Positions 21,539 through 39,044 of a stretch of DNA of 64,000 nucleotides are shown piece by piece. Position numbers and translations under genes: made by a program. Source of the stretch: Candidatus Geothermincolia bacterium (GTDB lineage Bacteria; Actinomycetota; Geothermincolia; Fen-727; Anoxymicrobiaceae). The notes beneath the pieces are model-generated. The model did no database searches. It worked only from the letters and a program-made list of their open reading frames with translations, and was not told the DNA's origin. Numbering within the stretch: the first letter of the stretch is position 1; every line of letters begins with the position of its first letter. The stretch lies in NCBI GenBank assembly GCA_038326775.1, contig JBBQKJ010000001.1:71510-135509 (forward strand), in the 5' to 3' direction.

Positions 21539-21583
21539 TTGACCCGAGCGAAGAGTTGCAGCACTCGTAAGGGGAGGGTCCGC

Positions 21584-22816
21584 ATGAGCAGCTTCGAGTT
21601 ATTCCCATGCTCCGGGCACAGGCTTGCCGACCTGGACAGGGCACTCGCGACCAGCTTGAACGAGATGCTGGAGAAAGAGGTCAGGAGCAGGCGGCTCGAG
21701 CTGAAAGAGGACTATGAGGGTTTGCTGAGACCGGCGCTCGAGCGGCTTCTGGCGGATGTCGGTCTGCAGAGGGTGTTCTGGGACGAGTCCCTCGGCGGAG
21801 AGGGTCACAACGGGCCCGAGGCGGCCTTCACCGTGGCCGCCGCCCTCGAGCAGGTCGGATGGGCCGACACCGGGCTCGCGTTTGTCGCGGCCCACAGCCT
21901 GGCTCTGCAGGCGTCGATGGCGGGTGTGGGTGGGGCTGGAGCAGCCGCCTGCTCGCGGTTCGCGCCGCTCTTCTGCGCAAACGGCCCGCCGGTATTGGTG
22001 GCGTTCGTCCTGCCTGGGTATTCCGAGGCCGACGGTCCGACCTGGAAGGGCAGGTCCCTGCAGGTCGAGTCGCGCAGGGAGGACAAGGAGCTGGTCCTGA
22101 AAGGCGAGATGGTTCGCCCGACCTGCTCGGGCGCCGACGCCGACCTCTTCGGGGTGCTCTGCGCCCTGGAAGGGGCCGAGGAGCCCGCTTTCGTGCTGGT
22201 CCCGGGTGACGCGGCCGGGCTCGTGCGGGGGCCCGTGTTCAAGAAGACCGGGCTCGCGGCCAGCCTGAATGCCGACCTCCGCTTTGATTCGGTCCGGGTG
22301 CCGGTGGAGAACCTCATATGGAGCTCGGAGGAAGGCACGCATCTGCTCCTCTCCTGGTACTACCTCGGACTGGCCGCTGCCGGGGCAGGCTCGCTGATCG
22401 CCAGCTACGAGATACTCAAGGAATGGGGGGACACCCGGGTCATAAAGGGGAAGGGGAGCATATTCAAGGAGAACCCTCTCACCGCCGCGTTGATGGGGAA
22501 AGTGGCGGGGGACGTGGCGCTGGCCCGCGCGCTAGCCTACTGGCTGGCCGGGTTGCTGGCCGAGCCGGACTCCTTTGTTTCGGACGGCATCCAGGGCGCC
22601 TGGACCATCGCTTCGATGGTCGCCCAGCGGATCTACGCCACGGCCGAGCAGTGCCTCCACAACACTATGGAGCTTATGGCATCAGCGGGGTACGCCAGTG
22701 AGTGGCAGCTCGAGCGTTACTGGCGCGACCTTAAGACCGTGCAGTGCTGCCTGGGCTCCCAGGAGCTCGCGAACATAGACGTGGCACGGCGTTTCTACGA
22801 CTGCAAGACGCTTTGA
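21584..22816 (+). CDS. Acyl-CoA dehydrogenase-fold protein, degenerate 'alpha-type' partner, 410 aa. Paralog of 35744..36976.
   Basis: AAGGGGAGGG RBS. ACAD-like C-terminal helices (RYWRDLKTVQ..LGSQEL...VAR). The middle-domain TEP..GSD substrate/FAD motif is replaced (VLPGYSEADG). Confidence 0.6.
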   Translation: MSSFELFPCSGHRLADLDRALATSLNEMLEKEVRSRRLELKEDYEGLLRPALERLLADVGLQRVFWDESLGGEGHNGPEAAFTVAAALEQVGWADTGLAFVAAHSLALQASMAGVGGAGAAACSRFAPLFCANGPPVLVAFVLPGYSEADGPTWKGRSLQVESRREDKELVLKGEMVRPTCSGADADLFGVLCALEGAEEPAFVLVPGDAAGLVRGPVFKKTGLAASLNADLRFDSVRVPVENLIWSSEEGTHLLLSWYYLGLAAAGAGSLIASYEILKEWGDTRVIKGKGSIFKENPLTAALMGKVAGDVALARALAYWLAGLLAEPDSFVSDGIQGAWTIASMVAQRIYATAEQCLHNTMELMASAGYASEWQLERYWRDLKTVQCCLGSQELANIDVARRFYDCKTL

Positions 22817-22832
22817 TGGAGGTGCGCGCGTT

Positions 22833-24098
22833 ATGAGGACCATTGACGATTTCACCCGGCCCCTGGAGTACATATCCCCGATTGACAAAACCCTGGGCAA
22901 CATATTTCGCGAGTGGGTGAACAATGAGGTCATTCCCAACCGGCGCCTCTACGACGAGGACTGGAAAGAGCACAAGCTCATCGGCGAGCCGTTCAAGAAA
23001 CTCCTTGTGGATTACGGCATCCAGCGAATCCTGTTCCCCGAGGACCTGGGCGGCTGGGGCCTCGGGCATTCCGGTGTGCTGTGCAGCGCTTCCCAGCGGA
23101 TGTTCGAGGAGATAGCGCGCGCGGACTCGGGGATGGCGGTAGCTTTCGGGGTCGTCTTCTGGCCCCTGGTGTTCATCACGGTGGAGCCCCACGTCAACCG
23201 TCGCCTCTGCGAGGAGTTCGCCCCGCTTTACATGCGGGACAAACCGGTCTTCGCCGCGCTTGCGATGACCGAGCCGCAGGGCGGCTCCGACATCGAGAAC
23301 GTGGATGTGTTGAAGGGCAGCACCATCGAGACCACCGCTGTCCGGGACAAAGACGAGTGGGTCATCAACGGCCACAAGCTCTGGGCCACCAACACCGGCG
23401 GCGTGGCGGAGCTGCTCGGTGTTGTGTGCACCACCAACCCGGGCTCGAGAGATCCCGACGACATCGCGGTGATATTCGTGCCTACCGACCTGCCCGGGGT
23501 CACCCAGGGGCCACCGTACGAGAAAGCGGGAATGGCCGCCGACAAGAACGGCGACGTCTGGTTCGAGGACGTTCGGGTGCCGCTGTGGTACCGCGCCTGC
23601 GGCCCGGGCGATGACGCGAAGTACTACAACGAGGTGGTCGCGCTCGGCCACATGGGGAGCATCGGCTTCGCCGTCGGGGTCATGATGAACGTGTATGAGA
23701 AGCTGCAGGAGTTCGTGAACCTGAAGCGCCACAGGGGCAAGCCGCTAAAGGAGAACGACGCCATCGCCGGGGTGCTCGCCGACTACGCCGCAACCCTTCA
23801 GGCACTCAGGATAATCGCCTACCAGGCCGCGCGGATGTGCGACCGGCAGGACCTCTACGGCCCGCGCTGGAGCCACGAGGTAGTGGCAAAGACGAGGGCC
23901 CTGCGTTACTTCGCGATGGACCGCTGCCTGGAGATGCTGGGCAAGGCTATGAACGTGATGGAAACGTACGGCGCCGACCGCGACTGGGATGTCGAGAAGC
24001 ACTGGCGCGACGTGAAGATGGTACAGCTCTGGCTCGGGGGCAAGCAGCTCTGTCAGATGGAGGTCGCCCGCTGGTTCTTCGAGTGCGAGACGCTCTAA
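22833..24098 (+). CDS. Acyl-CoA dehydrogenase family protein ('beta-type'), 421 aa. Paralog of 37031..38296.
   Basis: ACAD middle-domain motifs ALAMTEPQGGSD, EWVINGHKLWATN, PGVT.G....K.GMAAD...DV.FEDVRVP. At the usual YEG(T) catalytic-Glu position the sequence reads VQLWLGGKQL. Confidence 0.7.
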   Translation: MRTIDDFTRPLEYISPIDKTLGNIFREWVNNEVIPNRRLYDEDWKEHKLIGEPFKKLLVDYGIQRILFPEDLGGWGLGHSGVLCSASQRMFEEIARADSGMAVAFGVVFWPLVFITVEPHVNRRLCEEFAPLYMRDKPVFAALAMTEPQGGSDIENVDVLKGSTIETTAVRDKDEWVINGHKLWATNTGGVAELLGVVCTTNPGSRDPDDIAVIFVPTDLPGVTQGPPYEKAGMAADKNGDVWFEDVRVPLWYRACGPGDDAKYYNEVVALGHMGSIGFAVGVMMNVYEKLQEFVNLKRHRGKPLKENDAIAGVLADYAATLQALRIIAYQAARMCDRQDLYGPRWSHEVVAKTRALRYFAMDRCLEMLGKAMNVMETYGADRDWDVEKHWRDVKMVQLWLGGKQLCQMEVARWFFECETL

Positions 24099-24171
24099 GA
24101 ATGCCGTCGGTGAAATCAGTCAAGGATGCCGGTTCCCGAAAAGCAGAAGTCTATCACGCGGGCAGACCGCC

Positions 24172-24846
24172 TCACTGGTCCTTGTCCCAGCCTTTCTTCT
24201 TTATGAACTCGACCGCGCGATCTCTTACGTGGTCGACAAGCTCGCGGATGACCTGGGCGGCCTCCTCGGCCTTCCGGTTGTGAAAGTGATCGGTTGCCGC
24301 GGCAAAGTAACTTACATTGCTCTTCAGCTTTTTCTTCTCCATGGTGAGTGCCGCGTACTGGACTCTGCTGACTAAAGGCCATATGTCGAGCAGGATCTGT
24401 TCGAGCAGGGGGTTCTTGGTGGCCTTCAGGGAGATAACCAGGTACTGGACTGTCGCTTCGAGGTAGCCCGGGATATCACCGTGCTCCGCGGCGTCGCGGA
24501 GCTCCCGGATAGCGATTCGCTGCTTCTGGAAATCCTCTTCGTCCCCGTTCTCGACGCCCCTTCTCGCGACAAGCGCCAGCAGCTCTTTTAACACGTCGCA
24601 CAAGCGCTCGATTCCTGGAATGGACATCGGCGCTACACTGGCGCCACGCCTGGGAAGGATCTCCACAAGCCGCATTCTCTCAAGTATCCGCAACGCTTCA
24701 CGCACGGGAGCGCGGCTCACACCCAGATCCGACGCAAGCCTGGTCTCGATCAGTCTCTCTCCCGGGCTCAGCTCCATCCTGATTATCCGCTGGCTCAAAT
24801 ACTGCGCAATCTGCTCCGAGAGATTGTCAGAGGCCTGGAATTCCAC
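24172..24846 (-). CDS. GntR-family transcriptional regulator (FadR/FCD-like C-terminal domain), 224 aa, divergent from the GRE operon.
   Basis: N-terminal winged-HTH pattern (...L.PGERL.E..LA..LGVSR.PVREAL..LE..) typical of GntR regulators. Confidence 0.8.
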   Translation of the reverse strand: MEFQASDNLSEQIAQYLSQRIIRMELSPGERLIETRLASDLGVSRAPVREALRILERMRLVEILPRRGASVAPMSIPGIERLCDVLKELLALVARRGVENGDEEDFQKQRIAIRELRDAAEHGDIPGYLEATVQYLVISLKATKNPLLEQILLDIWPLVSRVQYAALTMEKKKLKSNVSYFAAATDHFHNRKAEEAAQVIRELVDHVRDRAVEFIKKKGWDKDQ

Positions 24847-24936
24847 CGTTGGTCTCCAATTCGTTATTGTTGCGACTCTATTCTAATCGTTGACCCGGCC
24901 ACGCGGCATCCCGGCGTGAGAAGCACGGCAACTCTA

Positions 24937-24973
24937 TTGACAAAGAACATACATATTGTATATTGTCGACAAT
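24937..24973 (+). promoter_or_regulatory. Putative sigma70-like promoter of the GRE operon (TTGACA at 24937-24942, 16-nt spacer, TATATT at 24959-24964) overlapped by two palindromic operator candidates: ATACATATTGTAT (24949-24961) and ATTGTCGACAAT (24962-24973).
   Basis: Hexamers and palindromes read from the sequence. Located in the divergent GntR/GRE intergenic region about 50 nt upstream of the GRE1 start. Confidence 0.4.
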
Positions 24974-25014
24974 TGAGGGGGAAGCTGGCACCTGGTGCAA
25001 AGGGGATGGTCTGT

Positions 25015-27681
25015 ATGAGCACCGCTACCCAAACTCTTAATTCCGAGAGGGTTTACCGCGTCATCCACATCAAGGTGGCAGAGGAGCCCAACGTGCACGT
25101 GCCCATCAAGCCCACGCTCGATTCCAGGGTAAAGATCTGCCTCGAAAGAGCGGAGCTGGTCACGGAATCCTACAGGCTCACCGAAGGCGAACCGTGGATA
25201 CTGCGCCGCGCCAAAGCCCTGGATCACCTGCTGCGCAATATGACCATTTACATCCTCGAGGGCGAAGAGATCGTGGGTAATTATTCCAGCACACCGGACA
25301 GTTTGCCCACCCATCCCGAATACTCCTACCGTTGGCTGGAGGACGCGCTTGAGACCGATTTCACGGACGCCCTGGATGAGGAAGGCAGGAGAAGACTGCG
25401 GCAAATCAATGAGTATTGGGCCGGACACAGCGTGGAGAGCAGGTTCCTCGAGACGGTGCCGGATGACTTGAAGCCATATACGGAATGGACGGGGGCCGTG
25501 GGAGGGACCTGGCTGTGGCCCCTGGGATGCATGGTGCTGAATTACGAAGGGGCCTTTGAAGAAGGGCTGAAGGGGTTGCTGGACGAGGTGCGGGAGCACA
25601 GCTCCAGGCTCGAGCCGGATGACCGGGATTATCAGGAGAAGCACGAGTTCTATATGGCTGCGGAGATCTGCGCTGAGGCGTTAATGGCCTTCGCCAGCCG
25701 TTTTGCCGCTCTGGCTGAGGAAAAGGCGGTCGGGGCTGAGGGCGAGCAGAAGGAGAGGTACGAGAGGATCGCCCACATCTGTTCGCGCATCCCGGAAAAC
25801 CCTCCCGAGAGTTTCCATGAAGCACTGCAGGCCTTCTGGTTCTACCACCTCGTGACCACGCAGATCGACTGGAACAGCGTGGGTCTGGGGCAGCGTTTCG
25901 ACCAGCTCTTCTGGCCATATTACGAGAAGGACAAAATGGAGAAACGCATCACCTACGAACGGGCGGTGGAGCTCTTTGAACACCTTTGGATAAAACTGGA
26001 TGACCTGGGGCAGATCAATCCCCAGATCTCCTCAATGCTCCAGGTAGGTGGCACCAAGTTTCAGAGCGCAACCCTTGGCGGGGTTGACAGGTACGGCAAC
26101 GACGCTACTAACGAGCTTTCATTCGCCATGATCGACGCTACAATGAATATCCGGACGCTGCAGCCCAGCCTCAGCGTTCGCTATCACGATAATATTGATC
26201 CGAGGATTATCGACAGGGCGGTGGACTGCATCGCCACGGGCATAGGCATGCCGGCTATATTCAATGACAACGCGGTCATCCCCTGGTCCCTGTACAAAGC
26301 GCTGGAACACCTCTATCCCGAATCGGGAAAGCTGTTCGGAGTGGGCTGCCTTCCGATACTTCAGAAGACCCATCATGCAGCGAAAAAGGCCATATCGCAC
26401 CTCCCGAAGTCATGGGAGGAAGGCCTGGAGAGCTACTTCCATAACTGGCCCTATAAGTTGTGTACCGCCGGCGGCAGGGCAGGGGACGCCTTACGCTATC
26501 TTACGAAACGTGCCCGGATATTCGATGCCGAGGAGATCATGTACCTTGCCCGAAACTGGTCAAACACGGCCTGTGTAGGGCCGGGATTTACGGGAATGGC
26601 CTCCCTCCAGGGCACGCTGGCAACCCTCATCACCGCCGCCATCCTCAATTACGCAAAGTGCCTGGAGTATGTCCTCTACCAGGGTGTGGAGCCGACCACC
26701 GGCGAGCAGTTGGGGGCAAGAACCCCAGACCCGCGCACTTTCAAGGCCTACGATGAGTTTCTGGATGCCTTCCTCTCTCAGATCAAGTACGCGCTGGAGC
26801 AAAACGCGAAAGTGTACGAGATAAGCGAGAAGCTCTACCAGGAGATGATGCCCCGTCCCCTCGCCTCCATGCTGGTGGGAAGGAAGACATCCATAGAGCG
26901 GGGCAAGGACGCGACCCGCAAGGGGGACGCCGCCTACAGCGAAGTCTTCCTGGCGGGCGGCGTGAACGCCGCGGACTCTCTGGCGGTCATAAAGAAACTC
27001 GTCTGCGAGGAGAAGTCGGTCAGCATCGACGAATTGATCAGAGCCTGTCAGTCAGACTGGGCGGGATGCGAGGACCTGCGCGGCAAGTGCCTGGCCGTTC
27101 CCAAGTTCGGCAACGATGACGACTCCGTGGACCTGGTCCTGGAGGATATGTACCGTAAGTCTGTAAAGGTCTTCAATGGAGTGAAGGACCATTTCGGCAA
27201 GCCCTTCGTACCGGAGGCGACCCTGGCCGGAGGGTACTTCGCCACCGGGCTTTCCACGGGCGCCACTCCTGACGGCCGCCGGGCCGCCGAGACCCTTTCG
27301 GACGGGCAGCTCTCGCCCATGCACGGTCGGGACTTGAGCGGTCCGACCGCCGTTCTCAAGTCATGCTCCAAGGTGAACCCCACGCGCTGCGGCAACCAGC
27401 TGGTCAACCAGAAGTTCCTGCCATCCGCACTCAAAGCCGCGAACAAGAAGCTGTTCGCCGATTACCTCAAGACCTGGTCCGAGTTCGGCAACTGGCATAT
27501 CCAGTTCAACTGTATCGACGCGGACACCCTGAGGGAAGCACGCGAGTATCCGGAAAGGCACAAGAACCTCATCGTGCGCGTTGCAGGGTACAGCGCTTTC
27601 TTCACCGAGCTTAATCCCGAGATACAAGCGGATATCATCAGGCGTTCCGAGCAGGACCTGGGTTCCTCGAGGTGTTGTTGA
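25015..27681 (+). CDS. Glycyl radical enzyme paralog 1 (GRE1), 888 aa, unknown substrate specificity.
   Basis: C-terminal glycyl-radical motif IVRVAGYSAFF plus TPDGR...SDGQLSPMHGRD...GPTAV. Putative thiyl Cys loop NTACVGPG about 338 residues before the Gly. Start chosen at MSTATQTLNSE by alignment with GRE3; RBS AAGGGGATGG. Confidence 0.9.
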   Translation: MSTATQTLNSERVYRVIHIKVAEEPNVHVPIKPTLDSRVKICLERAELVTESYRLTEGEPWILRRAKALDHLLRNMTIYILEGEEIVGNYSSTPDSLPTHPEYSYRWLEDALETDFTDALDEEGRRRLRQINEYWAGHSVESRFLETVPDDLKPYTEWTGAVGGTWLWPLGCMVLNYEGAFEEGLKGLLDEVREHSSRLEPDDRDYQEKHEFYMAAEICAEALMAFASRFAALAEEKAVGAEGEQKERYERIAHICSRIPENPPESFHEALQAFWFYHLVTTQIDWNSVGLGQRFDQLFWPYYEKDKMEKRITYERAVELFEHLWIKLDDLGQINPQISSMLQVGGTKFQSATLGGVDRYGNDATNELSFAMIDATMNIRTLQPSLSVRYHDNIDPRIIDRAVDCIATGIGMPAIFNDNAVIPWSLYKALEHLYPESGKLFGVGCLPILQKTHHAAKKAISHLPKSWEEGLESYFHNWPYKLCTAGGRAGDALRYLTKRARIFDAEEIMYLARNWSNTACVGPGFTGMASLQGTLATLITAAILNYAKCLEYVLYQGVEPTTGEQLGARTPDPRTFKAYDEFLDAFLSQIKYALEQNAKVYEISEKLYQEMMPRPLASMLVGRKTSIERGKDATRKGDAAYSEVFLAGGVNAADSLAVIKKLVCEEKSVSIDELIRACQSDWAGCEDLRGKCLAVPKFGNDDDSVDLVLEDMYRKSVKVFNGVKDHFGKPFVPEATLAGGYFATGLSTGATPDGRRAAETLSDGQLSPMHGRDLSGPTAVLKSCSKVNPTRCGNQLVNQKFLPSALKAANKKLFADYLKTWSEFGNWHIQFNCIDADTLREAREYPERHKNLIVRVAGYSAFFTELNPEIQADIIRRSEQDLGSSRCC

Positions 27682-27695
27682 GAGGGGTGGGTAGA

Positions 27696-30359
27696 ATGAG
27701 CGAGACGGCGAGAAGATTGAATGAAGAGAGGCTGATCAAGGCGGTCCAGATCACCGACGCGGAGAGCCCGTCGGTGAGCATGCCGGTCAAAGTGAAGCTC
27801 GATCCCAACGTTAAGATCTGCCTGGAGAGGGCGGAGCTGGTGACGGAGTCTTACCGGCGCACCGAGGGTGAGCCTTGGATAATCCGGCGCGCCAGGGCCC
27901 TGGACCACCAACTCCGGAACATGACCATTTATATACTCGAGGGCGAACAGATAGTGGGCAACTATGCCAGCACGCCGGACAGCCTGCCCACCTACCCGGA
28001 GATCTCCTGCCGCTGGTTGGACGAAGAGCTCGACGACGCCTACACACACGCGCTTGACGAGGAAGGAAAAAGAAGGCTGCGGGAGATACACCAGTACTGG
28101 TACGATGTGAACGTCGAGGGGACTATCCTCAGGGACCTGCCGGAGGAGCTGGAAGATTTCATCAGTTCCAGCAAGACCACGGCCATGTTCACCATGTTCT
28201 GGCCCGCGGGCGCCTTCCCCCTGGACCTTAAGGACTGGGTCTTTCCGCGTGGCTTGAACGGTATCCTGGAAGAGGTGGGCGAGCGGCGCGCCGCGTTGTC
28301 GAAAGACGACGTGGATTTCCAGGAGAAAGAAGATTTCTATAACGCTGCCGAGATAAGCACCAGGGCCGTGATTGCCTTCGCCCGTCGCTACTCCGCGCTG
28401 GCCTGGGAGAAGGCGGCATCGGCCGGCGGGAAGGCCAGGGAGGATTACCTGAAGGTGGCCGAGGTCTGCGCGCGCGTGCCAGAGCATCCCCCCCGGACCT
28501 TCCATGAAGCCCTGCAAACTTTCTTCTTCTGCCACCTGGTAACCGCCCAGATAGACTGGTACGGCCTGGGCCTTGGACAACGCTTCGACCAGCTCTTCTG
28601 GCCCTGCTACGCACGCGAAAAGGAAGAAGGAAGCATCACCTACGACCGCGCCGTGGAGCTGCTGGAGTTTCTCTGGATAAAACTGGACGACCTGGGCCAG
28701 ATCAATCCCGTCAGCACTTCCATCTACCAGGCGGGAGGGACCAAGTTCCAGAACGTATCCGTGGGCGGCGTGGACGAGAACGGCGAGGACGCGAGCAATG
28801 AGCTCTCCCTGGCGGTCCTGGACGCCACCATCAATATCCGTACTCCCCAGCCCGGCGTCTGTGTGTTATACCACGACAGGATCGACCCCAGGTTGCTCGA
28901 CAAGGCCATAGATTGCATCGCCTCGGGGATGGGGCAGCCCGCACTTTTCAATAACGATGTGTGTGTAAAGTGGCACCTTAACCTGGCGTTGGATATCCTC
29001 TACCCGGATTCGGGGGGATTCATCGGCGTCCCCTACCTTGGTCTGGTCCAGAAGACGGACAACCTCGTGAGGAAGGTTGTCTCTCACCTCCCGGCATCCC
29101 TGCGTAAAAAGATAGAGGAAAGATACGACGAATGGCCTTACGCAGTATATACGGGAGGCGGAAAGCCGGGTGACTTGTTGCGGGCGGCCTTGAAGAAGGT
29201 TCACCTCTGGGACGCTCAGAAGGGGTTGGCCCTGGCCCGGGGGTGGGCTCCCACCTCCTGCGTGGGAGGGGGATTGCAGGGCAAGGTGACCATACAGGGT
29301 ACCCTCACCTCAATACTCATCTTCACCGTATTGGATTTCCTGAAGTGCTTCGAGTACGTCATGTACCAGGGGGTGGAGCCTGAGACCGGCGAGCTGGTGG
29401 CGGTCCCCACCCCGGACCCCGGTTGCTTCCAGACCTACGACGAGTTCCTCGACGCCTACCTGGAGCAGGTCGAGTTCCAGGTGGACAGGGCCAACCGGGC
29501 TTACCAGATCGCCGAGATGACTTACGAGGAGCACATGCCCCGTCCTTTCGCCTCGGCCTGCACCGAGACCTGCGTCGCGAGGGGCAGGGACGGTATGCGG
29601 CGGGGAGACGCCTCCATCAGCGAGATCTTCAGTATGGGCAGCGTGAACGCCGCCGAATCCCTGGCCGCGGTGAAAAAACTGGTCTTCGATGATGGAGCGG
29701 TGACCATGGAGGAGCTGCTGAAGGCTTGCGACTCCAACTGGGAAGGCTATGAGGACGTGCACCGCAAATGCCTGGAGGTCCCCAAGTTCGGCAACGACGA
29801 CGACTACGTCGATCATATCCTGGACGACCTCTATCGCAAGGCCCAGGCCCTGGTCTACAGCCACAAGGACCATTGGGGCAACGGGCTGCACCTGGAGTCG
29901 TCCCTGGCGGCCGGTTATTACGTGGGCGGGCTCACCTGCTCTGCCACCCCGGACGGAAGGGTAAAGGGGGAGACCGTCTCCGACGGACAGCTCTCGCCAA
30001 TGCACGGCAGAGACATAAACGGCCCCACCGCGGTGCTCAAGTCCTGCTCGAAGGTGGACCCCCTCAAGAGCTGGAACCAGCTCTGCAATCAGAAGATAAA
30101 CCCCACCTTCCTCAAGGGAAAGAACAAGAGGCTTTTCGCTGATTACCTGCGTACCTGGCTCGGGTTCGGCAACTGGCATATCCAGTTTAACTGCCAGGAC
30201 GCGGAGAGCCTCAGGGATGCCATGGTTTATCCGGAGAGGCACCGGGATCTGATCGTGCGCGTAGCCGGATACAGCGCCTTCTTCATAGACCTGGCGCCCG
30301 GCTTGCAGCAGGATATCATCAGGAGAACGGAGCAGAGCCTGAAGGATACGGTTCACTGA
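27696..30359 (+). CDS. Glycyl radical enzyme paralog 2 (GRE2), 887 aa, the most divergent of the three.
   Basis: RVAGYSAFF Gly motif, TPDGR block, Cys loop TSCVGGG. Start at MSETARRL with RBS GAGGGGTGGG. Confidence 0.9.
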   Translation: MSETARRLNEERLIKAVQITDAESPSVSMPVKVKLDPNVKICLERAELVTESYRRTEGEPWIIRRARALDHQLRNMTIYILEGEQIVGNYASTPDSLPTYPEISCRWLDEELDDAYTHALDEEGKRRLREIHQYWYDVNVEGTILRDLPEELEDFISSSKTTAMFTMFWPAGAFPLDLKDWVFPRGLNGILEEVGERRAALSKDDVDFQEKEDFYNAAEISTRAVIAFARRYSALAWEKAASAGGKAREDYLKVAEVCARVPEHPPRTFHEALQTFFFCHLVTAQIDWYGLGLGQRFDQLFWPCYAREKEEGSITYDRAVELLEFLWIKLDDLGQINPVSTSIYQAGGTKFQNVSVGGVDENGEDASNELSLAVLDATINIRTPQPGVCVLYHDRIDPRLLDKAIDCIASGMGQPALFNNDVCVKWHLNLALDILYPDSGGFIGVPYLGLVQKTDNLVRKVVSHLPASLRKKIEERYDEWPYAVYTGGGKPGDLLRAALKKVHLWDAQKGLALARGWAPTSCVGGGLQGKVTIQGTLTSILIFTVLDFLKCFEYVMYQGVEPETGELVAVPTPDPGCFQTYDEFLDAYLEQVEFQVDRANRAYQIAEMTYEEHMPRPFASACTETCVARGRDGMRRGDASISEIFSMGSVNAAESLAAVKKLVFDDGAVTMEELLKACDSNWEGYEDVHRKCLEVPKFGNDDDYVDHILDDLYRKAQALVYSHKDHWGNGLHLESSLAAGYYVGGLTCSATPDGRVKGETVSDGQLSPMHGRDINGPTAVLKSCSKVDPLKSWNQLCNQKINPTFLKGKNKRLFADYLRTWLGFGNWHIQFNCQDAESLRDAMVYPERHRDLIVRVAGYSAFFIDLAPGLQQDIIRRTEQSLKDTVH

Positions 30360-30434
30360 GGCGCCAGCATTCGGGTATTTTGGTTGAGGGCAGGACCAGA
30401 ATCGGCCTGCTGATTTGTCAAGGGGGTAGTTTCG

Positions 30435-33110
30435 ATGAGCGTCATCACACAAACTCTTAATTCCGAGAGGCTTTATCGCGTCATCCACATCAGGACGGCA
30501 GACAATCCCAACGTGCATAGACCGATAGACTGTGTCCTGGATCCCAGGGTGAAGATCTGCCTGGAGAGAGCAGAACTGGTGACTGAGTCCTACATGCGTA
30601 CCGAGGGTGAACCCTGGATTATGCGCAGAGCCAAGGCGCTGGACCACCTGTTGCGCAACATGACGATTTACATACTGGAGGGAGAAGAGATCGTCGGCAA
30701 TTATTCCAGTTCACCGGACAGCCTGCCTACGCATCCGGAATTCTCCTACCGCTGGCTGGAGAAAGCCCTCGAGGATGAGTTCAGGCACGCCCTGGACGAG
30801 GAGGGCAAGAGAAGGCTCAGGGAGATCAACAGATACTGGCAGGACGACAGCGTTGAGAGCAGGTTCCTTGAGGCTGCGCTGTCCTTTCCTGAGGAACTCA
30901 AGCCTTTTACCGGCTGGACGGGTGCGGTCGGAGCGGCCTGGGAATGGCCACTGGGTTGTATGGTACTCAACTACGAGCTTGCCTTCGAGGAAGGGCTGAA
31001 CGGGATGCTGGCCGAGGTGCGCAGATACCGCTCCATGCTTTCTGCAAAAGACCCGGAATATAAGGAGAAGCAGGAATTCTACCAGGCGGCGGAGATCTGC
31101 GCCGAGGCTGTGATGGCTTTCGCCAGGCGTTTTGCCGCCCTGGCCGAGGAGAAGGCAACCGGGGCTGAGGGCGAGCAGAAACAAAGATATGAGCGGATTG
31201 CCCGTATCTGCTCACGCGTGCCCGATAACCCCCCGGAGAACTTCCATGAGGCCCTGCAGGCTTTCTGGTTCTACCACCTCATAACCAGCCAGATCGATTG
31301 GAATAGCGTAGGGCTGGGCCAGCGTTTCGATCAACTCTTCTGGCCCTACTACGAGAAGGACAAGTTTGAGGAGAGGATAACCTATGAAGGTGCGGTAGAA
31401 CTCTTCGAGCACCTGTGGATAAAGCTGGACGACCTTGGCCAGATCAACCCTTGGAAGCACGCTATGCTCCAGGTGGGAGGCACCAAGTTCCAGAGCGCCA
31501 CCCTGGGCGGTGTTGACAGGTACGGCAACGACGCCACCAACGAACTCTCCTTCGCCATGATCGACGCCACCATGAACATCCGCACCCTGCAACCCAGCCT
31601 CAGCCTGCGCTATCACGAAAACATCGACCCCCGCATCGTCGAAAAGGCGGTGGACTGCATCTCCACCGGTATCGGCATGCCGGCCATCTTCAACGATAAG
31701 CCGGTCATATCCTGGATGCTCAATGCCGCAATGGAACATCTCTATCCTGAGAGTGGAAAGATCTTCGGGGTGGCCTGTATGCCAGTCCTCAAGAAGGTGC
31801 ACGACCAGGCAAAGAAGGCCATCTCATTTCTGCCCAAGTCCTGGGAGGAAGGCCTGGAGAGCTACTTCCACAACTGGCCCTACAAGCTTTGCACCGCAGG
31901 TGGCAGGGCAGGGGACGCCCTTCGCGGCATTACCAAGCACCTGGGCATCTTCGACGCCGACGAGGTCCTCTACTTCGCTCGCAATTGGTCCAACACCGCC
32001 TGCGTGGGGCCGGGATTTACCGGCATGGCCGCTGTCCAGGGTAGCCTCGCCACTATTATCTGCGCCGCCGTCTTCAACTACGCCAAGTGCCTGGAATACG
32101 TCCTTTATCAAGGCGTGGAACCGACTACCGGTGAACAGCTGGGAGCGCGGACCCTCGACCCGCGTACCCTCAAAACCTATGACGAGTTCCTGGACGCCTT
32201 CCTGGCGCAGGTGAAGTACGCCCTGGAGCAGATCGCCAAGGTCTACGAGATAAGCGAGAAGCTCTTCGAGGAGATGATGCCACGCCCCCTGCCTTCCATG
32301 CTGGTAGGAAGAAAGAGTTCCATCATACGCGGCAAGGACGCCACCCGTAAGGGCGACCTCGGCTACAGCGAGGTCTTCCTGGCCGGCTCCGTGAACACGG
32401 CCGATTCCCTGGCGGTGATCAAGAGACTGGTCTATGAGGAGAAGACGGTGACCATGAGTGAGATCATCGAGGCCTCCAGGTCCGACTGGGCGGGGAATGA
32501 GGACCTGCGCCGCAAGTGCCTGGCGGTACCCAAGTTCGGCAACGACGACGACTACGTGGACCTCGTCCTGGAGGAAATGTACCGCAAGACCGTTAAGGTG
32601 TTCAAGGGGGTGAAGGACCACTTCGGAAATCACTTAGTGCCGGAAGCCACCATGGCGGGAGGCTATTTCGCTATCGGCGTCTCCACCGGAGCCACGCCCG
32701 ACGGCCGCCGGGCGCGCGAAACCCTCTCGGACGGTCAGCTCTCGCCCATGCACGGCCGTGACGTGAAGGGACCCACGGCGGTGCTAAAGTCCTGTTCGAA
32801 GGTGGATCCCACGCGCTGCGGCAACCAACTGGTCAACCAGAAGTTCCTGCCCTCTGCACTCAAAGGCGAGAACAAGAAGCTGTTCGCCGATTACCTCAAG
32901 ACCTGGTCCGAGTTCGGCAACTGGCACATCCAGTTCAACTGCATCGACGTGGATACATTGCGAGAAGCACAGGCGCATCCCGAGAGCCACGGGAACCTCA
33001 TCGTACGCGTGGCCGGATACAGCGCTTTCTTCACCGAGCTCAATCCCGAGATACAAGCGGATATCATCAGGCGTTCAGATCAGGATCTGGGCAAGTCCAG
33101 ACGCTGTTGA
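30435..33110 (+). CDS. Glycyl radical enzyme paralog 3 (GRE3), 891 aa, about 80 percent identical to GRE1.
   Basis: RVAGYSAFF Gly motif, Cys loop NTACVGPG. Long near-identical stretches to GRE1 at protein and DNA level. Confidence 0.9.
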   Translation: MSVITQTLNSERLYRVIHIRTADNPNVHRPIDCVLDPRVKICLERAELVTESYMRTEGEPWIMRRAKALDHLLRNMTIYILEGEEIVGNYSSSPDSLPTHPEFSYRWLEKALEDEFRHALDEEGKRRLREINRYWQDDSVESRFLEAALSFPEELKPFTGWTGAVGAAWEWPLGCMVLNYELAFEEGLNGMLAEVRRYRSMLSAKDPEYKEKQEFYQAAEICAEAVMAFARRFAALAEEKATGAEGEQKQRYERIARICSRVPDNPPENFHEALQAFWFYHLITSQIDWNSVGLGQRFDQLFWPYYEKDKFEERITYEGAVELFEHLWIKLDDLGQINPWKHAMLQVGGTKFQSATLGGVDRYGNDATNELSFAMIDATMNIRTLQPSLSLRYHENIDPRIVEKAVDCISTGIGMPAIFNDKPVISWMLNAAMEHLYPESGKIFGVACMPVLKKVHDQAKKAISFLPKSWEEGLESYFHNWPYKLCTAGGRAGDALRGITKHLGIFDADEVLYFARNWSNTACVGPGFTGMAAVQGSLATIICAAVFNYAKCLEYVLYQGVEPTTGEQLGARTLDPRTLKTYDEFLDAFLAQVKYALEQIAKVYEISEKLFEEMMPRPLPSMLVGRKSSIIRGKDATRKGDLGYSEVFLAGSVNTADSLAVIKRLVYEEKTVTMSEIIEASRSDWAGNEDLRRKCLAVPKFGNDDDYVDLVLEEMYRKTVKVFKGVKDHFGNHLVPEATMAGGYFAIGVSTGATPDGRRARETLSDGQLSPMHGRDVKGPTAVLKSCSKVDPTRCGNQLVNQKFLPSALKGENKKLFADYLKTWSEFGNWHIQFNCIDVDTLREAQAHPESHGNLIVRVAGYSAFFTELNPEIQADIIRRSDQDLGKSRRC

Positions 33111-33126
33111 AGGAGCTTTCCGACAC

Positions 33127-34155
33127 ATGGCTCTTGATAGAATCAATTCCTGGAAGAAAAAAGCGGTCGCGTTAGCCAGGAATTCTGGCGGGGGGCGGCT
33201 GAACATGGACCTCGATATTCAGGGGCTGGTCTTCAATATCCAAAAATTCAGCATCGACGACGGCCCGGGAATCCGGACCACCGTCTTCATGAAGGGATGT
33301 CCCTTCAGATGCCCGTGGTGTTCCAACCCAGAGTCCATCAACCCCTATCCCGAGGTCATCACGAAATTCGACGCTCTCTGCAAAGACTGCGGTCGCTGCC
33401 AGGATTCCTGCGAGATTGGGGCTATTAAGGTGATCGAGAGCCTGCTACCCGGAGACGACCGGCCGCGGGAGCGCACCCGCGACCTCGACCGCCATCTGTG
33501 CAACAGATGTATGAAATGCGTGGAAGCCTGCCCGACCGGCGCCTTGAGTAGCGTGGGAGAGGCCAAGACTGTAAGGGAAGTTCTCGAGGTTGTGGAACAG
33601 GACCGCCCGTTCTACGAAAACAGCGGTGGGGGAGTGACCCTTTCTGGCGGAGAGCCTCTCATGCAGCCCGATTTCGCTCTGGCGCTGCTGAGGGAAAGCA
33701 AGAGGAGGGGTCTTCATACGGCCCTGGACACATGCGGTCAAGCGCCAACCGATTCCCTGGAGGCCCTGCTGCCCTTCCTGGACCTGGTCCTCTACGACGT
33801 AAAACACACTGACCCCACAGCCCACGAGAAGGCGGTGGGCTCGGATAACCTGACCATTCTCGAGAACCTGCGATTCCTCAGCGGCAAGGTCGCCATCTGG
33901 CTCCGCGTTCCGTTGATACCCGGCTTCAACGATGACCTCGAGACCCTGCGGGATATCGTGGAGCTGGCCGGGGAAGTCTGCATCGAAAGATTGTTTTTCC
34001 TGCCCTACCACCGATGGGGATCTGGCAAATATCCCGGTTTGGGAAGGGAGTACGAGCTCGCGAATACAGGCGAGATCTCGGCGAACAAGCTGGAAACGGT
34101 GAAGGAGCTTTGTGGCTCATCGGGAATCGCCGCCTGCGAGATCGCCAGCGAATGA
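33127..34155 (+). CDS. Glycyl radical enzyme activating enzyme (radical SAM) with an inserted ferredoxin-like two-cluster domain, 342 aa. An alternative start at 33205 (MDLDIQGLVFNIQKFS...) is possible.
   Basis: CPFRCPWCSNPE radical-SAM CxxxCxxC immediately after FSIDDGPGIRTTVF. CKDCGRCQDSC and CNRCMKCVEAC extra clusters. GGEPL SAM motif. Confidence 0.9.
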   Translation: MALDRINSWKKKAVALARNSGGGRLNMDLDIQGLVFNIQKFSIDDGPGIRTTVFMKGCPFRCPWCSNPESINPYPEVITKFDALCKDCGRCQDSCEIGAIKVIESLLPGDDRPRERTRDLDRHLCNRCMKCVEACPTGALSSVGEAKTVREVLEVVEQDRPFYENSGGGVTLSGGEPLMQPDFALALLRESKRRGLHTALDTCGQAPTDSLEALLPFLDLVLYDVKHTDPTAHEKAVGSDNLTILENLRFLSGKVAIWLRVPLIPGFNDDLETLRDIVELAGEVCIERLFFLPYHRWGSGKYPGLGREYELANTGEISANKLETVKELCGSSGIAACEIASE

Positions 34156-34165
34156 TTCTGCCGAA

Positions 34166-34762
34166 ATGGATAGAGGAGAGAGCCAGTTGGGTAAGAAAGA
34201 GGAGTTGATCGAGGAGATCCTCCAGGTGGAGTGGGAGATGTTCACTTCGGTCCGCGCCAGGGGAAGAAGTGCCCTCTGCCAGGAAGATCCCGATTCCTTC
34301 CGGATCATCAGAGCGGCCAACTTCATGACCTGGTCAGATGACACCCTTACCAGCTACCTGGACGATGTAAAGACGGCCGGGAGCCTGGGCAGGAACCTGA
34401 TGACCGAGAAATACGCCCGCATGGAGGGCATCATCCCACCGCTCAACCCGGCGGTCCAACCGATTATTGACAAAATCGTAGAACAGGAATGCCTGTGGGC
34501 GGAGGATTTCTCGCGGAGCAACCCGAGCGCAAGATTAGCCCGTCCCATATATGCTCGCGACGAATCACCTGGCGTCGTCTCCTCCGAGACCTACTCCAGG
34601 GCAGAGCTGGAAACGTATTCCGCCCGCACCCTCGAACAGTACTACTCGGATGTCATGGGCATGTTGTCCGGGGGTGAGAACCGCATCGAGTTCGCGGTTC
34701 GCTACATGCGGGAGCTGGCATCGATTAGAAAGAGGAGCGGGCGTGTTCGGTTACGTTCCTGA
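34166..34762 (+). CDS. Conserved hypothetical protein, about 199 aa, immediately downstream of the activase. No Fe-S motif. Possibly DUF4125-like.
   Basis: ORF in operon position with the GRE/activase genes. Family assignment from memory only; low certainty. Confidence 0.4.
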   Translation: MDRGESQLGKKEELIEEILQVEWEMFTSVRARGRSALCQEDPDSFRIIRAANFMTWSDDTLTSYLDDVKTAGSLGRNLMTEKYARMEGIIPPLNPAVQPIIDKIVEQECLWAEDFSRSNPSARLARPIYARDESPGVVSSETYSRAELETYSARTLEQYYSDVMGMLSGGENRIEFAVRYMRELASIRKRSGRVRLRS

Positions 34763-34876
34763 CGCAAAGACTTGAGAAAGTGCAAGCTGCGGAGGTCGAG
34801 CAGGATAAGCACCCTACCGGTGGTTGATTGTTTCTCCGGCCTGTTGACAGTTGCTGGAAACCATATTTACAATGGC

Positions 34877-34900
34877 GCGCATAGGGAACATACATACATG
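34877..34900. promoter_or_regulatory. 24-bp palindrome GGAACATACAT-AC-ATGTATGTTCC (11-bp arms), about 40 bp upstream of the TetR gene. Candidate TetR operator.
   Basis: Perfect inverted arms read from the sequence. The ATACAT/ATGTAT half-sites echo the GRE-promoter motif. Confidence 0.45.
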
Positions 34901-34938
34901 TATGTTCCATCCTCAACCTCAATGCACGATTGGTTGAA

Positions 34939-35674
34939 CATGAGTTCTGTCGAGAAGCGGGACCAGATTATCGCGGCCGGCGTCCGCGTATTCCCGAAGC
35001 TCGGCTATCACGGGACGACCGTCGAGGACGTCATTCGCGAAGCCGGGGTCGCGCGGGCGACTTTCTACGCTTACTTCGCGGACAAGCGCGGGCTTTTCAT
35101 CGAGATCGCCACGGGAAGAACCACACAGATCGTGCACATTCTCACTGTCGGTGTCGACTCGGTCATCGAACAATATGAAACCCTGGGGGCTGAAGCGCTC
35201 GACCAGGAAACGTTCCAGGCGCCTCTCTCCGACCTGGTGGAAGCCATATTCCGATTCGTGAGGAGTAACCGCGGGGTAACGAAGATCTTCTTCCACGACA
35301 TGGTCGGCGCGGACAAAGAGTTCACCCGCATCTTCAACGACTACCAGGAGGCGCTGATCAACCAGATGGAGCGCTTGATGGAATACGGAGTCGGCCATGG
35401 GGTGCTCAAGAAGACCGACTGCAGGAAGGCCGCGGAGTTCATAATAAGCGGGCACATGCACCTGGCCAGGAGCTTCAGCGCCGGCACCGGCAGGTACGAT
35501 GTCGAGGAGGTCGCGCGCCAGTTCATCGACTATCAGTTCAACGGTCTTATGGAGAGAAACGACCCCCCTTCAGCGGACGGCAAGAAGAAAAGCGCGGCGG
35601 CAGGGGCAGGAGCACGGGGCCAGGAGCGCCCAGGGGGCATCAACACCGGCGGAGCCCCGGAAACCCGCCGTTAG
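34939..35674 (+). CDS. TetR-family transcriptional regulator with a low-complexity basic/Ala-Gly C-terminal tail.
   Basis: N-terminal HTH: GYHGTTVEDVIREAGVARATFYAYFADKRGLF (canonical TetR_N). Start at MSSVEKRDQ; an ATG at 34921 is also possible. Confidence 0.8.
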
Positions 35675-35743
35675 AATAGAGAAGTAGAGAGTAGGCGTAC
35701 CGGTTGGTCGAAGCGTCGATAAGAGAAGCCTTGAGGTGGTGCT

Positions 35744-36976
35744 ATGAGATACCAGGAATTGTTCCCCGTTCCGATCGAGTGGCTTCAGGATTCTGACAGG
35801 TCGATGGTCGAGACGATCTCCTTATGGGCCGAGCAGGAGGTGAAGTCGAAGCGCCTCGAGCACAAGGAAGATTACGAAGGTCTCCTGCTGCCGGCGATGC
35901 GCAAGCTCTTTTTAGACATCGGCCTCCAGTCCATGATGCTCCCCGAGGAGCTGGGCGGCGGCGGGATAGACTCGCCGGATGCCGCTGTAACGACTACCGC
36001 GGTCCTTGAGCAGGTCGCCGCGGCGGATTCAGGCATCGGGTTCCTGTTCGCCAACGCGCTCGCCCTGCAGTACGCCCTCGCGATATCGCCCAACAAGAGC
36101 GCCGAGCCCCTCAAGGAGGCGGCCCCGGTGTTCACCGGTGGCGACATCGCGCTCTGCTCGCTTGTGCTCCCCGCCTACGGCTCCGACACGAAAGAGCGCC
36201 CGCGCTATTACGGCCTGGACTACCCCGCCACGGCCGTGAAGACCGGCGCCGGTTGGGTCGTGAGCGGCGGACCGGCGCGCCCACAGTGCTGCGGCGCGAC
36301 CGCGAGCATATTCGGGGTGGTCTGCGACCTGGGCGACGGTACTCCCGGGATGCTGATAGTCCCCGCCGGCGCGAAGGGCGTGAAGAAAGGCAAGCCGTTC
36401 AAGAAGACCGGCCTGGCCGCGAGCGTGAATGCCGACGTGACCTTCAAGGATGTCAAGGTGCCGGGAAGCGCCCTGGTGCTCGAGGGGATCGAAGCGCTGC
36501 GCGCTGTGCTCTCATGGTATTACATGGCCTGCGCCGCGGTGTGTGCGGGCTCGCTGCAGACGACTCACGAGATACTCCAGGAGTGGGGCGACACCCGGGT
36601 CATAAAGGGCAAGGGCCAGGTGTTCAAGGAGAACCCGCTGGTCGCCTCCCTGATGGGTGAGATCGGTGGCAAGATGGGCACGAGCCGCCTGCTTACCTAT
36701 AACCTGGCCAGGATGCTCTCGCGCCCCGATGTCTACGGGCCCGCCGGTGCGGGCAGCCTTCACGTGTCGGCTATCTCGGCTTTCAAGCAGGTGGGACGCA
36801 TGGCCATGGAGGCCATGGACAACACGATGGAGCTCATGGCCTCCGCCGGGTACGCCACCGAGTGGAACCTCGAGCGATACTGGCGTGACGTCAAGACAGT
36901 GGAGACTTACGTGGTCCCCGAGACTGTCGCCCAGACCTGCATGGCCAGGCAGTACTTCAACCTCAAACAACTCTAA
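35744..36976 (+). CDS. Acyl-CoA dehydrogenase-fold protein, degenerate 'alpha-type', 410 aa. Paralog of 21584..22816.
   Basis: Collinear with 21584..22816 (…KRLE.KEDYEGLL.PA...L..D.GLQ..., C-terminal ERYWRDVKTVE). GAGGTGG RBS. Confidence 0.6.
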   Translation: MRYQELFPVPIEWLQDSDRSMVETISLWAEQEVKSKRLEHKEDYEGLLLPAMRKLFLDIGLQSMMLPEELGGGGIDSPDAAVTTTAVLEQVAAADSGIGFLFANALALQYALAISPNKSAEPLKEAAPVFTGGDIALCSLVLPAYGSDTKERPRYYGLDYPATAVKTGAGWVVSGGPARPQCCGATASIFGVVCDLGDGTPGMLIVPAGAKGVKKGKPFKKTGLAASVNADVTFKDVKVPGSALVLEGIEALRAVLSWYYMACAAVCAGSLQTTHEILQEWGDTRVIKGKGQVFKENPLVASLMGEIGGKMGTSRLLTYNLARMLSRPDVYGPAGAGSLHVSAISAFKQVGRMAMEAMDNTMELMASAGYATEWNLERYWRDVKTVETYVVPETVAQTCMARQYFNLKQL

Positions 36977-37030
36977 AGCCGGGACCGACCGCCGGGCTTT
37001 GCTCGGACGGCTCTCTAGCAGGAGGAGCGA

Positions 37031-38296: not shown

Positions 38297-38339
38297 GTTC
38301 GCGAATGCCGGGTTGGAGACGATTCAAGGCGGTGAGGTG

Positions 38340-39044
38340 ATGGAAGAGACGTCGTTGCCGCGCAGAGGGCCGATCGAGGGCACCAGCAGGGTGGTCCGCG
38401 AGCTCCTGCGAACCCCGAGGTTCAAGAAAACGGTGAACATCCTCCTGAGCGAGCTGGACCCTGAGAACACCGGCTTGCTCGTGAAGACGCTGATGTGGGA
38501 AGACCCGGAGTTATTCCTGAGCCTGTTCGGTGCCACGCCCGATATCGCGAATGTCGCCATCAACGGGTTGCTCGAGCTGTCCCGCCAGCTGTCCAACTTC
38601 CCCCCCGGGCTTCTCGCGAGCTTCCTGTCCGTCCTGATGGAGGGGCTCGAGATGGAGAGCCTCGGCACGGCTGTCGGGAAGGTGCGGGATCTTCTGGTGG
38701 AAGTCCGCGACAGCGGAGGACAGCCGCTCGTAGATTCTCTTACAGACCTCCTCAGAAGGTTCGCCAGGGGGGCAACGGGCTTCACACCGGTTTCCGGCGC
38801 TCCCTCGGTATCGGCGGACAAGGTCGTGGACAGCGTCTTGCCAGTGCTCGCTTCGGCCGCCGCGAGATTCGGCGGGGAGGCCGCGCGCGAGGGTTCGGAG
38901 ACGAGCGCCGCGGTCAAGAAGCTGGCGGACGGCGTGAGGGATATCGCCTCCAGGAACCCCGAGTTCATGAAATCGGTCGTAGCCCCGCTGGTGGAGGCAG
39001 GCAAAGCCGCGCTGGCCGGAACGGACGCAGGGGAGGGCTCCTGA
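38340..39044 (+). CDS. Hypothetical alpha-helical protein, 234 aa, paralog of the next gene. No Cys, Ala/Leu-rich.
   Basis: GGTGAGGTG RBS then ATG. Shared block ...R.PAF.......L.....DPE....L....LWED.EL.LS..G..P.I.N.....LEL.RQ..NFP.GLL... with 39044..39643. Confidence 0.5.
   Translation: MEETSLPRRGPIEGTSRVVRELLRTPRFKKTVNILLSELDPENTGLLVKTLMWEDPELFLSLFGATPDIANVAINGLLELSRQLSNFPPGLLASFLSVLMEGLEMESLGTAVGKVRDLLVEVRDSGGQPLVDSLTDLLRRFARGATGFTPVSGAPSVSADKVVDSVLPVLASAAARFGGEAAREGSETSAAVKKLADGVRDIASRNPEFMKSVVAPLVEAGKAALAGTDAGEGS

Follow-up and report, generated by a model that had tools for sequence, protein, structure and literature searches.

A tandem of three glycyl radical enzymes from a discrete, unstudied clade that seems to fit no characterised class

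Glycyl radical enzymes (GREs) perform hard anaerobic chemistry, such as hydrocarbon activation and the formation of trimethylamine, cresol and skatole. Among the characterised classes, eliminases and isomerases (glycerol and propanediol dehydratases, HypD, CutC, IslA, HpsG, HplG, YbiW and PflD) all retain a C-x-E motif at the catalytic cysteine and formate lyases (PFL, TdcE) use a Cys-Cys pair; the decarboxylases HPAD and IAD use a Glu two residues after the cysteine (position C+2), at which phenylacetate decarboxylase (PAD) carries Gln484 (PMC13450708). X-succinate synthases bind fumarate via a conserved Arg (Arg508 in BSS, Arg492 in MASS; PMC12358834) and require HiPIP-like [4Fe-4S] beta and gamma subunits, while aminoacyl radical enzymes (AAREs) exchange the radical Gly for another residue (PMC13450708). 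According to a 2026 review of the field, whole GRE clades are still without experimental validation (PMC13450708). The DNA considered here is a stretch of 64,000 nucleotides (the window) from a Candidatus Geothermincolia bacterium (contig JBBQKJ010000001.1, positions 71,510 to 135,509), in which three GRE genes, GRE1, GRE2 and GRE3, precede a single activase gene. As a clear representative of an unstudied GRE clade, the locus is a good experimental target, not proven new chemistry.

The central features, all on the forward strand, were as follows (positions of the window, as throughout):

25015 to 27681, + strand: GRE1, A-type, 888 aa (PF02901 and PF01228)
27696 to 30359, + strand: GRE2, B-type, 887 aa (PF02901 and PF01228)
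30435 to 33110, + strand: GRE3, A'-type, 891 aa (PF02901 and PF01228)
31695 to 31982, + strand: clade-specific helical insertion of GRE3 (aa 421-516), seven predicted helices, directly before the Cys-loop strand
33127 to 34155, + strand: radical SAM GRE-activating enzyme (TIGR02494, CX3CX2C and two ferredoxin-type Cys clusters)

By their domains, glycine motif and aligned cysteine, GRE1, GRE2 and GRE3 are genuine members of the PFL-like GRE superfamily (IPR004184). PF02901 was recognised in all of them with E-values of ~1e-146 to 1e-151, and each contained PF01228 as well (Pfam). They retained the radical-glycine motif RVAGYS (RVAGYSAFF), with the glycine at Gly858 in GRE1 (nt 27586-27588), Gly858 in GRE2 (nt 30267-30269) and Gly861 in GRE3 (nt 33015-33017). 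The corresponding cysteines were Cys520 (nt 26572-26574, loop NTACVGPG), Cys522 (nt 29259-29261, loop PTSCVGGG) and Cys523 (nt 32001-32003, loop NTACVGPG), located 338, 336 and 338 residues before the respective glycine. Cys523 aligned with the GCVEP cysteine of propanediol dehydratase (PD) and with the ACMSP cysteine of MasD, and the catalytic cysteine did not vary among 66 aligned homologues. An AlphaFold2 model of GRE3 (pLDDT 94.2, pTM 0.94) gave TM-scores of 0.78-0.83 to all solved PFL-like GREs. The original prediction, made from the bare sequence, had announced three full-length tandem GREs of 887-891 aa with one activase, and a cysteine about 338 aa before the radical glycine in a CVG(P/G)G loop lacking Glu at C+2. 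The reading frames lay where it had placed them and the cysteine was corroborated by its spacing and its alignment to solved GREs; C+2 was Gly in all three proteins and Gly, Ala or Thr across the clade described below.

Judging from these residues, the three enzymes are probably catalytically active. It is very improbable that one or more of them is inactive or decaying: all three are full length with the glycine, the cysteine and every clade-invariant residue, and B-type proteins are 76-89 % conserved over several contigs. What speaks for decay is the presence of three GRE copies per one activase, together with a related locus (L006) whose GRE2 orthologue seems truncated (665 aa, no Gly domain) and is not accompanied by a normal activase. 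In that locus (9932-13603), the orthologue (75 % identity) was seemingly truncated or frameshifted at 665-688 aa, and the downstream gene encoded a Fer4 protein; either decay of the locus or an assembly error may account for this. A second cysteine, Cys836 of GRE3 (nt 32940-32942; equivalents in GRE1 and GRE2), was invariant in the clade and specific to it, yielding HIQFNC in place of the FNV of other GREs. It is located on the strand running to the Gly loop.

On profile and motif grounds, GRE1-3 appear to fit no characterised GRE class. The NCBIfam equivalogs (HypD, HpsG, HpfG, CutC, IAD, HPAD and PFL) scored 70-450 bits against cut-offs of 994-1150, every curated equivalog model remaining below half its cut-off. 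Eliminase and isomerase equivalogs (HypD, HpsG, HpfG, CutC and NF007437) reached 361-448 bits (cut-offs 1000-1109), decarboxylase models NF033715 and NF033718 273-385 bits (1100-1150), formate-lyase model TIGR01255 70-74 bits (994) and PFL2-3 subfamily model TIGR01774 524-548 bits (678). The original prediction had considered that this could be a GRE class not yet described; in the profile check, no NCBIfam equivalog or subfamily cut-off was reached. Whole-length phmmer comparison with the PDB returned PD (404 bits), CutC (392), glycerol dehydratase (GDH, 390), MasD (344) and TutD (343), and PDB matches by sequence and by fold (Foldseek, GRE3 model) were equally remote from every class, at 21-31 % identity. 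Class hallmarks were likewise missing from GRE1-3. Their loops held a single cysteine (A-C-V or S-C-V) and no Cys-Cys pair of the formate-lyase type; no C-x-E motif, typical of eliminases, isomerases, HPAD and IAD, was present; and the radical Gly was kept, with none of the Ala, Ser or Thr replacements that mark AAREs. The 25 residues following the cysteine contained no Lys or Arg in GRE1 and GRE3, and in GRE2 only a Lys at C+8.

A single-sequence search of 5.8 billion proteins, with clusters taken at the 90 % identity level, yielded ~25 clusters of ~890-aa proteins that displayed 53-85 % identity and form a clade. A profile built from 24 members recovered the same 25 clusters at 1430 bits or more, the next protein scoring 906 bits. 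In a 50 %-identity library of 1.84 billion representatives, which gave 1727 GRE-like matches at E<=1e-30, only one full-length representative aligned in a single stretch (P0012, 57 %), the remaining ones aligning in two stretches at <=43 % identity. The clade is small, sharply bounded and discrete. All members came from metagenome-assembled genomes (MAGs) or metagenomes, and the named hosts were Smithella sp. SDB (from a paraffin-degrading culture), Desulfosudaceae, Desulfobacterales and a Nitrospirae MAG. A Cys-loop signature, AR.W..(A/S)CV(G/A/T)(P/G/A/H)G, was kept in all members; the GGTKFQ motif, which contains Lys351, and Glu737 were invariant, and Glu646 was found in 21 of the 24 members. 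With its sharp boundary, and carrying no signature residues of any characterised class, the clade makes a well-defined target.

The helical insertion comprised roughly 70-80 residues between the PAIFND strand and the Cys-loop strand, and an equivalent segment was present in GRE1 and GRE2. It was displayed by 21 of the 24 clade members, being absent from P0016, P0020 and P0024 and from all outgroups. Pfam, NCBIfam and PDB alignments all broke at ~aa 430-515, no Pfam family matched the insertion, and its block-mean pLDDT in the GRE3 model was ~90-97. In IAD, helices ahead of the Cys loop build the tetramer interface, and built-in GRE extensions overlap the binding sites of small subunits (PMC13232127). 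By analogy, the insertion may modulate Cys-loop dynamics or oligomerisation, or it may replace a small subunit; this confidently modelled module sits exactly at the presumed control point of Cys-loop dynamics and tetramerisation. One distant clade member, in L012 (JGI 3300017989), displayed a peculiar arrangement: a 582-aa radical SAM protein (4855-6603) lay between the GRE and a normal 333-aa activase, an 89-aa open reading frame (ORF) preceded the GRE, and a second GRE of ~800 aa was located 8 kb downstream.

Absence of Glu at C+2, which had been put forward as a mark of novelty, did not hold as such. When the 143 nearest full-length 50 %-identity representatives were aligned, 71 carried Glu at C+2 and 72 carried a different residue (Ser in 14, Asp in 10, Gln in 8, His in 7, Thr in 6, Arg in 4, Gly in 3, and further ones), and Glu is also missing from characterised formate lyases (Cys-Cys), X-succinate synthases (C-M-S) and PAD (PMC13450708). 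Since half of the nearest representatives (72/143) have no Glu there, the C+2 criterion alone is not exceptional; a missing C+2 Glu is common, just as unvalidated GRE clades are already acknowledged by the field. The clade stands out through several features in combination and through its sharp boundary. The closest outgroups were ~800-aa proteins, mostly from Chloroflexota, with the loop C(M/V)xW.IPGK. Eight of the 143 relatives (within P0157-P0302) carried Thr (five) or Ala (three) at the radical-Gly column, and AAREs therefore lie near this GRE sequence space.

Glycerol and propanediol dehydratases (1r8w, 5i2a) gave the top whole-length score and the best Foldseek E-value (29-31 % identity, TM 0.81). 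In contrast to these enzymes, equivalents of the C-x-E Glu, His164, Ser282 and Asp447 were missing, and alignments broke at the insertion. In GRE3 numbering, GDH Glu435 corresponded to Gly525, His164 to Cys175 (variable in the clade: C, M, L, H, V, P, A, F, I), Ser282 to an invariant Gly293, and Asp447 (PD Asp452) to Cys543, also variable. Residues of BSS, MASS and IslA were mapped by assembling PDB sequence alignments. The fumarate-binding Arg (BSS Arg508, MASS Arg492) fell on Ile541/542, BSS Trp613 on Glu646, and BSS Ile617 on Ala650 in A-type and on Met in B-type proteins. IslA Arg678 was matched by Glu737; Thr739 occupied the position of BSS Gln707, MASS Glu690, IslA Val680 and GDH Tyr640; and BSS Val709 and Leu711 were matched by Ala741 and Gly743. 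As predicted from this mapping, the pocket appears to be spacious and largely apolar, containing one or two acidic strand residues and no acid/base next to the cysteine; an apolar pocket of that kind would suit radical chemistry by hydrogen-atom transfer only, as in hydroalkylases, and not eliminase chemistry.

The two strand residues could themselves act as a relocated general base, with Glu737 or Glu646 on a barrel strand taking over from the Cys loop; the enzymes would then be eliminases or isomerases of a hydroxylated or aminated substrate. The dehydratase scores and Foldseek E-values point this way, as do the position of invariant Glu737 at the site of the sulfonate-binding Arg of C-S lyases (IslA Arg678) and the precedent of HPAD, in which a strand-borne Glu (Glu637) is catalytic. 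Nevertheless, C-x-E is retained by every characterised eliminase and isomerase, the partner acids have gone too (the His164 and Asp447 sites being variable, apolar or Cys, and the Ser282 site Gly), and the global score differences are small and partly driven by length. Such a relocated-base enzyme is distinctly unlikely.

X-succinate synthases (BssA/TutD, 4pkc; MasD, 9o8u) resemble the clade at the cysteine: they too have no C+2 Glu and no acid/base beside the Cys, which in both groups is embedded in the motif AR.W...(A/L)C(V/M)(G/S)P. MasD was the best PDB match for the Cys-loop-to-beta7 segment of GRE3 (aa 488-720, E 3e-26; next 8e-22). When a 72-aa loop was searched, MasD was the sole GRE aligned over the Cys loop itself (E 0.003), PFL2, HplG and PFL aligning with the flanks only. 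As regards clustering with BssA, AssA or MasD, the Cys-loop segment was closest to MasD, and whole-length scores (343-344 bits, 25-26 % identity) were no higher than those of other classes. Hosts are alike as well, clade members coming from anaerobic Desulfobacterota-type lineages. The differences from X-succinate synthases are that their fumarate-binding Arg is Ile here, that beta, gamma and delta genes are absent, that the 70-80-residue insertion is extra and that no bbs- or ass-type operon is linked.

These differences bear on whether the proteins could be true fumarate-adding X-succinate synthases with another mode of fumarate binding and no small subunits, which is highly improbable. The Cys-loop similarity to MasD would agree with this, as would the host lineages (the Smithella member coming from a paraffin-degrading source), a family III CoA-transferase, acyl-CoA dehydrogenase (ACAD) and enoyl-CoA hydratase (ECH) near some loci, and the invariant Lys351, which could substitute for the Arg. 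The Arg common to BSS and MASS is missing, however, as are beta and gamma genes; BSS and MasD are no more than 25-26 % identical to the clade proteins, and a bbs- or ass-like operon is not consistently linked.

The preferred reading, to which a probability of roughly 0.4 was assigned, is C-C chemistry of the hydroalkylase kind, independent of a base, on a substrate that is bulky and mostly apolar, with neither fumarate nor accessory subunits. It builds on the missing eliminase acid/base set, second Cys and fumarate Arg, and on the MasD-like Gly/Pro-rich loop and apolar pocket. By homology, the activase (33127-34155) would install the radical on Gly858, Gly858 and Gly861 of GRE1, GRE2 and GRE3, and the glycyl radical would then form a thiyl radical on Cys520, Cys522 and Cys523. 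Hydrogen-atom-transfer chemistry without a Cys-loop base would follow, with formation or cleavage of a C-C bond in the manner of hydroalkylases. Most likely, the A-type proteins (GRE1 and GRE3) and the B-type protein (GRE2) would take different, related substrates and form no obligate heteromer; pocket positions differ between them, e.g. Ala650 versus Met at the BSS Ile617 site. Hosts and neighbours lend further support, namely the Smithella member from a paraffin-degrading culture and acyl-CoA genes near six of 11 loci. The reaction class and substrate had initially been regarded as beyond inference, yet the Cys-loop likeness to MasD and the absent eliminase acid/base set give hints of the reaction class.

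Several points weigh against hydroalkylase-like chemistry. The Arg that defines X-succinate synthases and their beta and gamma subunits are absent; whole-length scores are slightly higher to diol/glycerol dehydratases than to X-succinate synthases (404 vs 343 bits); Glu737 and Glu646 could be relocated general bases; and the residue mapping stems from sequence alignment. The module of L017 adjoins flagellar genes and has no downstream beta-oxidation genes, and acyl-CoA neighbours may occur by chance in organisms rich in such genes. Finally, the linked GntR/FCD regulators and the DctP TRAP binding protein of L016 indicate a carboxylate and not a hydrocarbon.

This last point would also suit decarboxylases acting by hydrogen-atom transfer on a hydrophobic carboxylic acid, as PAD does. 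The cell would take up and sense the carboxylate, and the hydrocarbon-like end product would require no additional dedicated enzymes. GntR/FCD regulators are typically carboxylate-binding. Carboxylate-type GntR/FCD regulators and the DctP gene downstream in L016 are consistent with such a substrate, and the module is self-contained (regulator, GREs and activase) amid unrelated neighbours, e.g. the flagellar genes of L017. PAD/PhdB and arylacetate decarboxylase (AAD, 7e7l) also consist of a compact GRE and activase locus; they lack a small subunit, as does IAD, and PAD is devoid of C+2 Glu too. AAD 7e7l was the best PDB match for GRE3 aa 326-429, and Cys-loop backbone amides bind carboxylate in other GREs. 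On the other hand, the Kolbe-type enzymes HPAD and IAD need the C+2 Glu, missing here, to re-protonate the cysteine; HPAD also has a gamma subunit, for which no counterpart is encoded here. Gln484 (C+2) and Trp495 (C+13), essential in PAD, would both correspond to Gly, a correspondence obtained by offset from the review numbering of Cys482 and not by alignment. The NCBIfam decarboxylase models scored lowest of the non-PFL classes (273-385 bits), and no aromatic-acid context was found at the locus, contrary to PAD and AAD. A decarboxylase of this type is regarded as unlikely, albeit less so than the relocated-base enzymes.

The most far-reaching reading would make the clade an eighth functional class of PFL-like GREs: single-subunit enzymes in which an internal helical module replaces accessory subunits and a base-free, Gly-rich Cys loop serves a radical C-C (or other) transformation of a substrate which is not fumarate and is outside the range of all known GREs, A and B paralogs covering related substrates or stereoisomers. 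This proposal is tentative and somewhat doubtful. A single-subunit hydroalkylase-like enzyme would be of interest for bioremediation of hydrocarbons and for C(sp3)-C(sp3) biocatalysis, as dependence on accessory subunits has been a practical obstacle. If the enzymes were merely decarboxylases or eliminases, the gain would be one further substrate on the GRE map. In either case, the minimal cassette of a regulator, one to three GREs and one activase should express easily.

The remaining features of the locus were the following:

24172 to 24846, - strand: divergent GntR/FCD-family regulator (PF00392 and PF07729)
24937 to 24964, + strand: sigma-70-like promoter candidate, TTGACA-16-TATATT, 11/12 matches (consensus match only)
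34166 to 34762, + strand: DUF4125 protein, 198 aa, last operon gene (PF13526, E 8e-51)
34922 to 35674, + strand: TetR-family regulator, 250-aa form (PF00440; ATG at 34922)

GRE1, GRE2, GRE3 and the activase constitute a single operon behind the divergent GntR/FCD gene. The promoter candidate lies ~50 nt 5' of the GRE1 ATG (25015), and intergenic gaps in the locus are 9-168 bp. The activase scored 338 bits on TIGR02494 (cut-off 174) and contained CPFRCPWC and two CxxCxxCxxxC motifs. Its additional ferredoxin-like domain, pointed out in the original prediction, is thus present, but it is not special, being the norm in activases except PFL-AE and RNR-AE (PMC13450708). The statement that no small Fe-S subunit is encoded nearby was confirmed: given the gaps of 9-168 bp, the locus held no free-standing Cys-rich small ORF, all such ORFs overlapping a large gene in another frame, and no small-subunit gene was called in related loci L016, L017 and L024. 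The small ORF at 34166-34762, correctly described as lacking an Fe-S motif, was identified as DUF4125. A scan of the window with Rfam detected no riboswitch and two tRNAs only. As for the regulators, the divergent GntR/FCD gene was borne out, while the TetR gene, initially counted with the locus, probably marks the start of the following transcription unit, with the ACAD and HGD-D genes, and probably does not belong to the GRE operon, because a promoter-like near-consensus site (34844-34873) precedes its homologue-supported start (34922). In L019 and L020, the TetR protein was called at 250 aa, with a gap of ~160 bp after DUF4125.

Tandem paralogs sharing an activase are atypical, yet known for threonyl radical enzymes, which display the same layout of adjacent paralogs (two in their case, ~40-56 % identical) followed by a single activase (PMC11528403). 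The window proteins differ from these in retaining the radical Gly (RVAGYS). GRE1 shared 82 % protein identity with GRE3 and 56 % with GRE2, in line with the earlier estimate of about 80 % and a divergent GRE2. The recent tandem duplication of GRE1 and GRE3 proposed along with it was ruled out, because the two genes are only 78.8 % identical at the nucleotide level and match exactly over no more than 57 nt in a row, and because GRE1 is as near to P0004 from another contig (82 %) as to GRE3.

Related loci repeatedly contained a unit made of a local regulator, one or two GREs and an activase. The order A-B-activase was encountered in L016, L017 and L018, that of L017 with a divergent GntR gene upstream and flagellar genes after the module. 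A'-activase stood alone in L024, and L022 combined a single, distantly B-like GRE with an activase. A and B thus each occur without the other, which weakened the idea of an obligate A/B heteromer. GRE3 was 89 % identical to the GRE of L024 and the window activase 72 % identical to the activase of that locus, as opposed to only 52-55 % for activases of A-B loci; GntR, GRE1 and GRE2 matched L017 at 55 %, 72 % and 89 %. From these matches, the operon seems to have been assembled from a GntR-A-B module and an A'-activase module. The B-type genes of L016 and L017 shared 85-89 % identity with GRE2. GntR/FCD was the regulator most often linked to the GRE module, its orthologues (44-55 %) lying divergently upstream of the GRE in L001, L003, L006, L017 and L025, and AraC, MarR or TetR being found at other loci. 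At the contig end of L024 (7113-7790, - strand), a second activase-like gene (48 % to the window activase) hinted at an adjoining GRE module.

The wider neighbourhood had been described as an embedding in CoA-thioester radical enzymology, which was not upheld: DUF4125, TetR, ACAD pairs and HGD-D genes stood beside GREs only in 99 %-identical relatives (L019-L021), and other clade members had quite different neighbours. Near-identical loci are contained in the samples SRR17021127-31. DUF4125 was absent from other loci and, since it recurred only in those near-identical relatives, was rejected as a GRE subunit; in a related setting it is part of a ring-cleavage operon, not of a GRE system (PMC12583861). 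Acyl-CoA genes (ACAD, ECH, CoA ligase, CoA transferases and HGD-D) were found near six of 11 distinct loci. They are weak evidence, because none of the neighbouring ACAD, ECH, CoA-ligase, CoA-transferase and DctP genes was named by NCBIfam above cut-off and because these lineages are rich in such genes.

A functional partnership with the ACAD/HGD-D neighbourhood was further weakened by base composition, as the GRE cassette, lower in GC and GC3, splits two old paralogous gene sets. The cassette (24001-36000) displayed a GC of 0.57-0.61 and a GC3 of 0.71-0.81, compared with 0.62-0.64 and 0.84-0.87 in the flanks, which suggests lateral acquisition. The upstream set (20045-24098) encoded an HGD-D protein of 497 aa, an ACAD-like protein of 425 aa and an ACAD of 421 aa. 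The downstream set (35744-45058) comprised an ACAD-like protein (410 aa), an ACAD (421 aa), three unknown genes and HGD-D proteins of 381, 498 and 467 aa. Pairwise identities were 44-68 %. The 381-aa HGD-D protein was nearest to double-cubane reductase and BzdN models, below cut-off, and no BcrAD/BadFG-type ATPase was seen.

Elsewhere in the window, two tRNA genes (16081-16154 and 19225-19298) flanked ~3 kb of lower GC3 with intervening ORFs free of Pfam matches, and a PD-(D/E)XK endonuclease gene (15632-16090) lay just upstream of the tRNA pair; this may be the remnant of an integrated element. At 7466-8908, a protein of the HpaB/4-hydroxybutyryl-CoA dehydratase family, far below the HpaB equivalog cut-off, was followed by an Amidohydro_2 gene. 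Finally, a 1011-aa protein with DUF5719 as its sole Pfam match (49571-52606) was followed by a DUF362 and 4Fe-4S protein.

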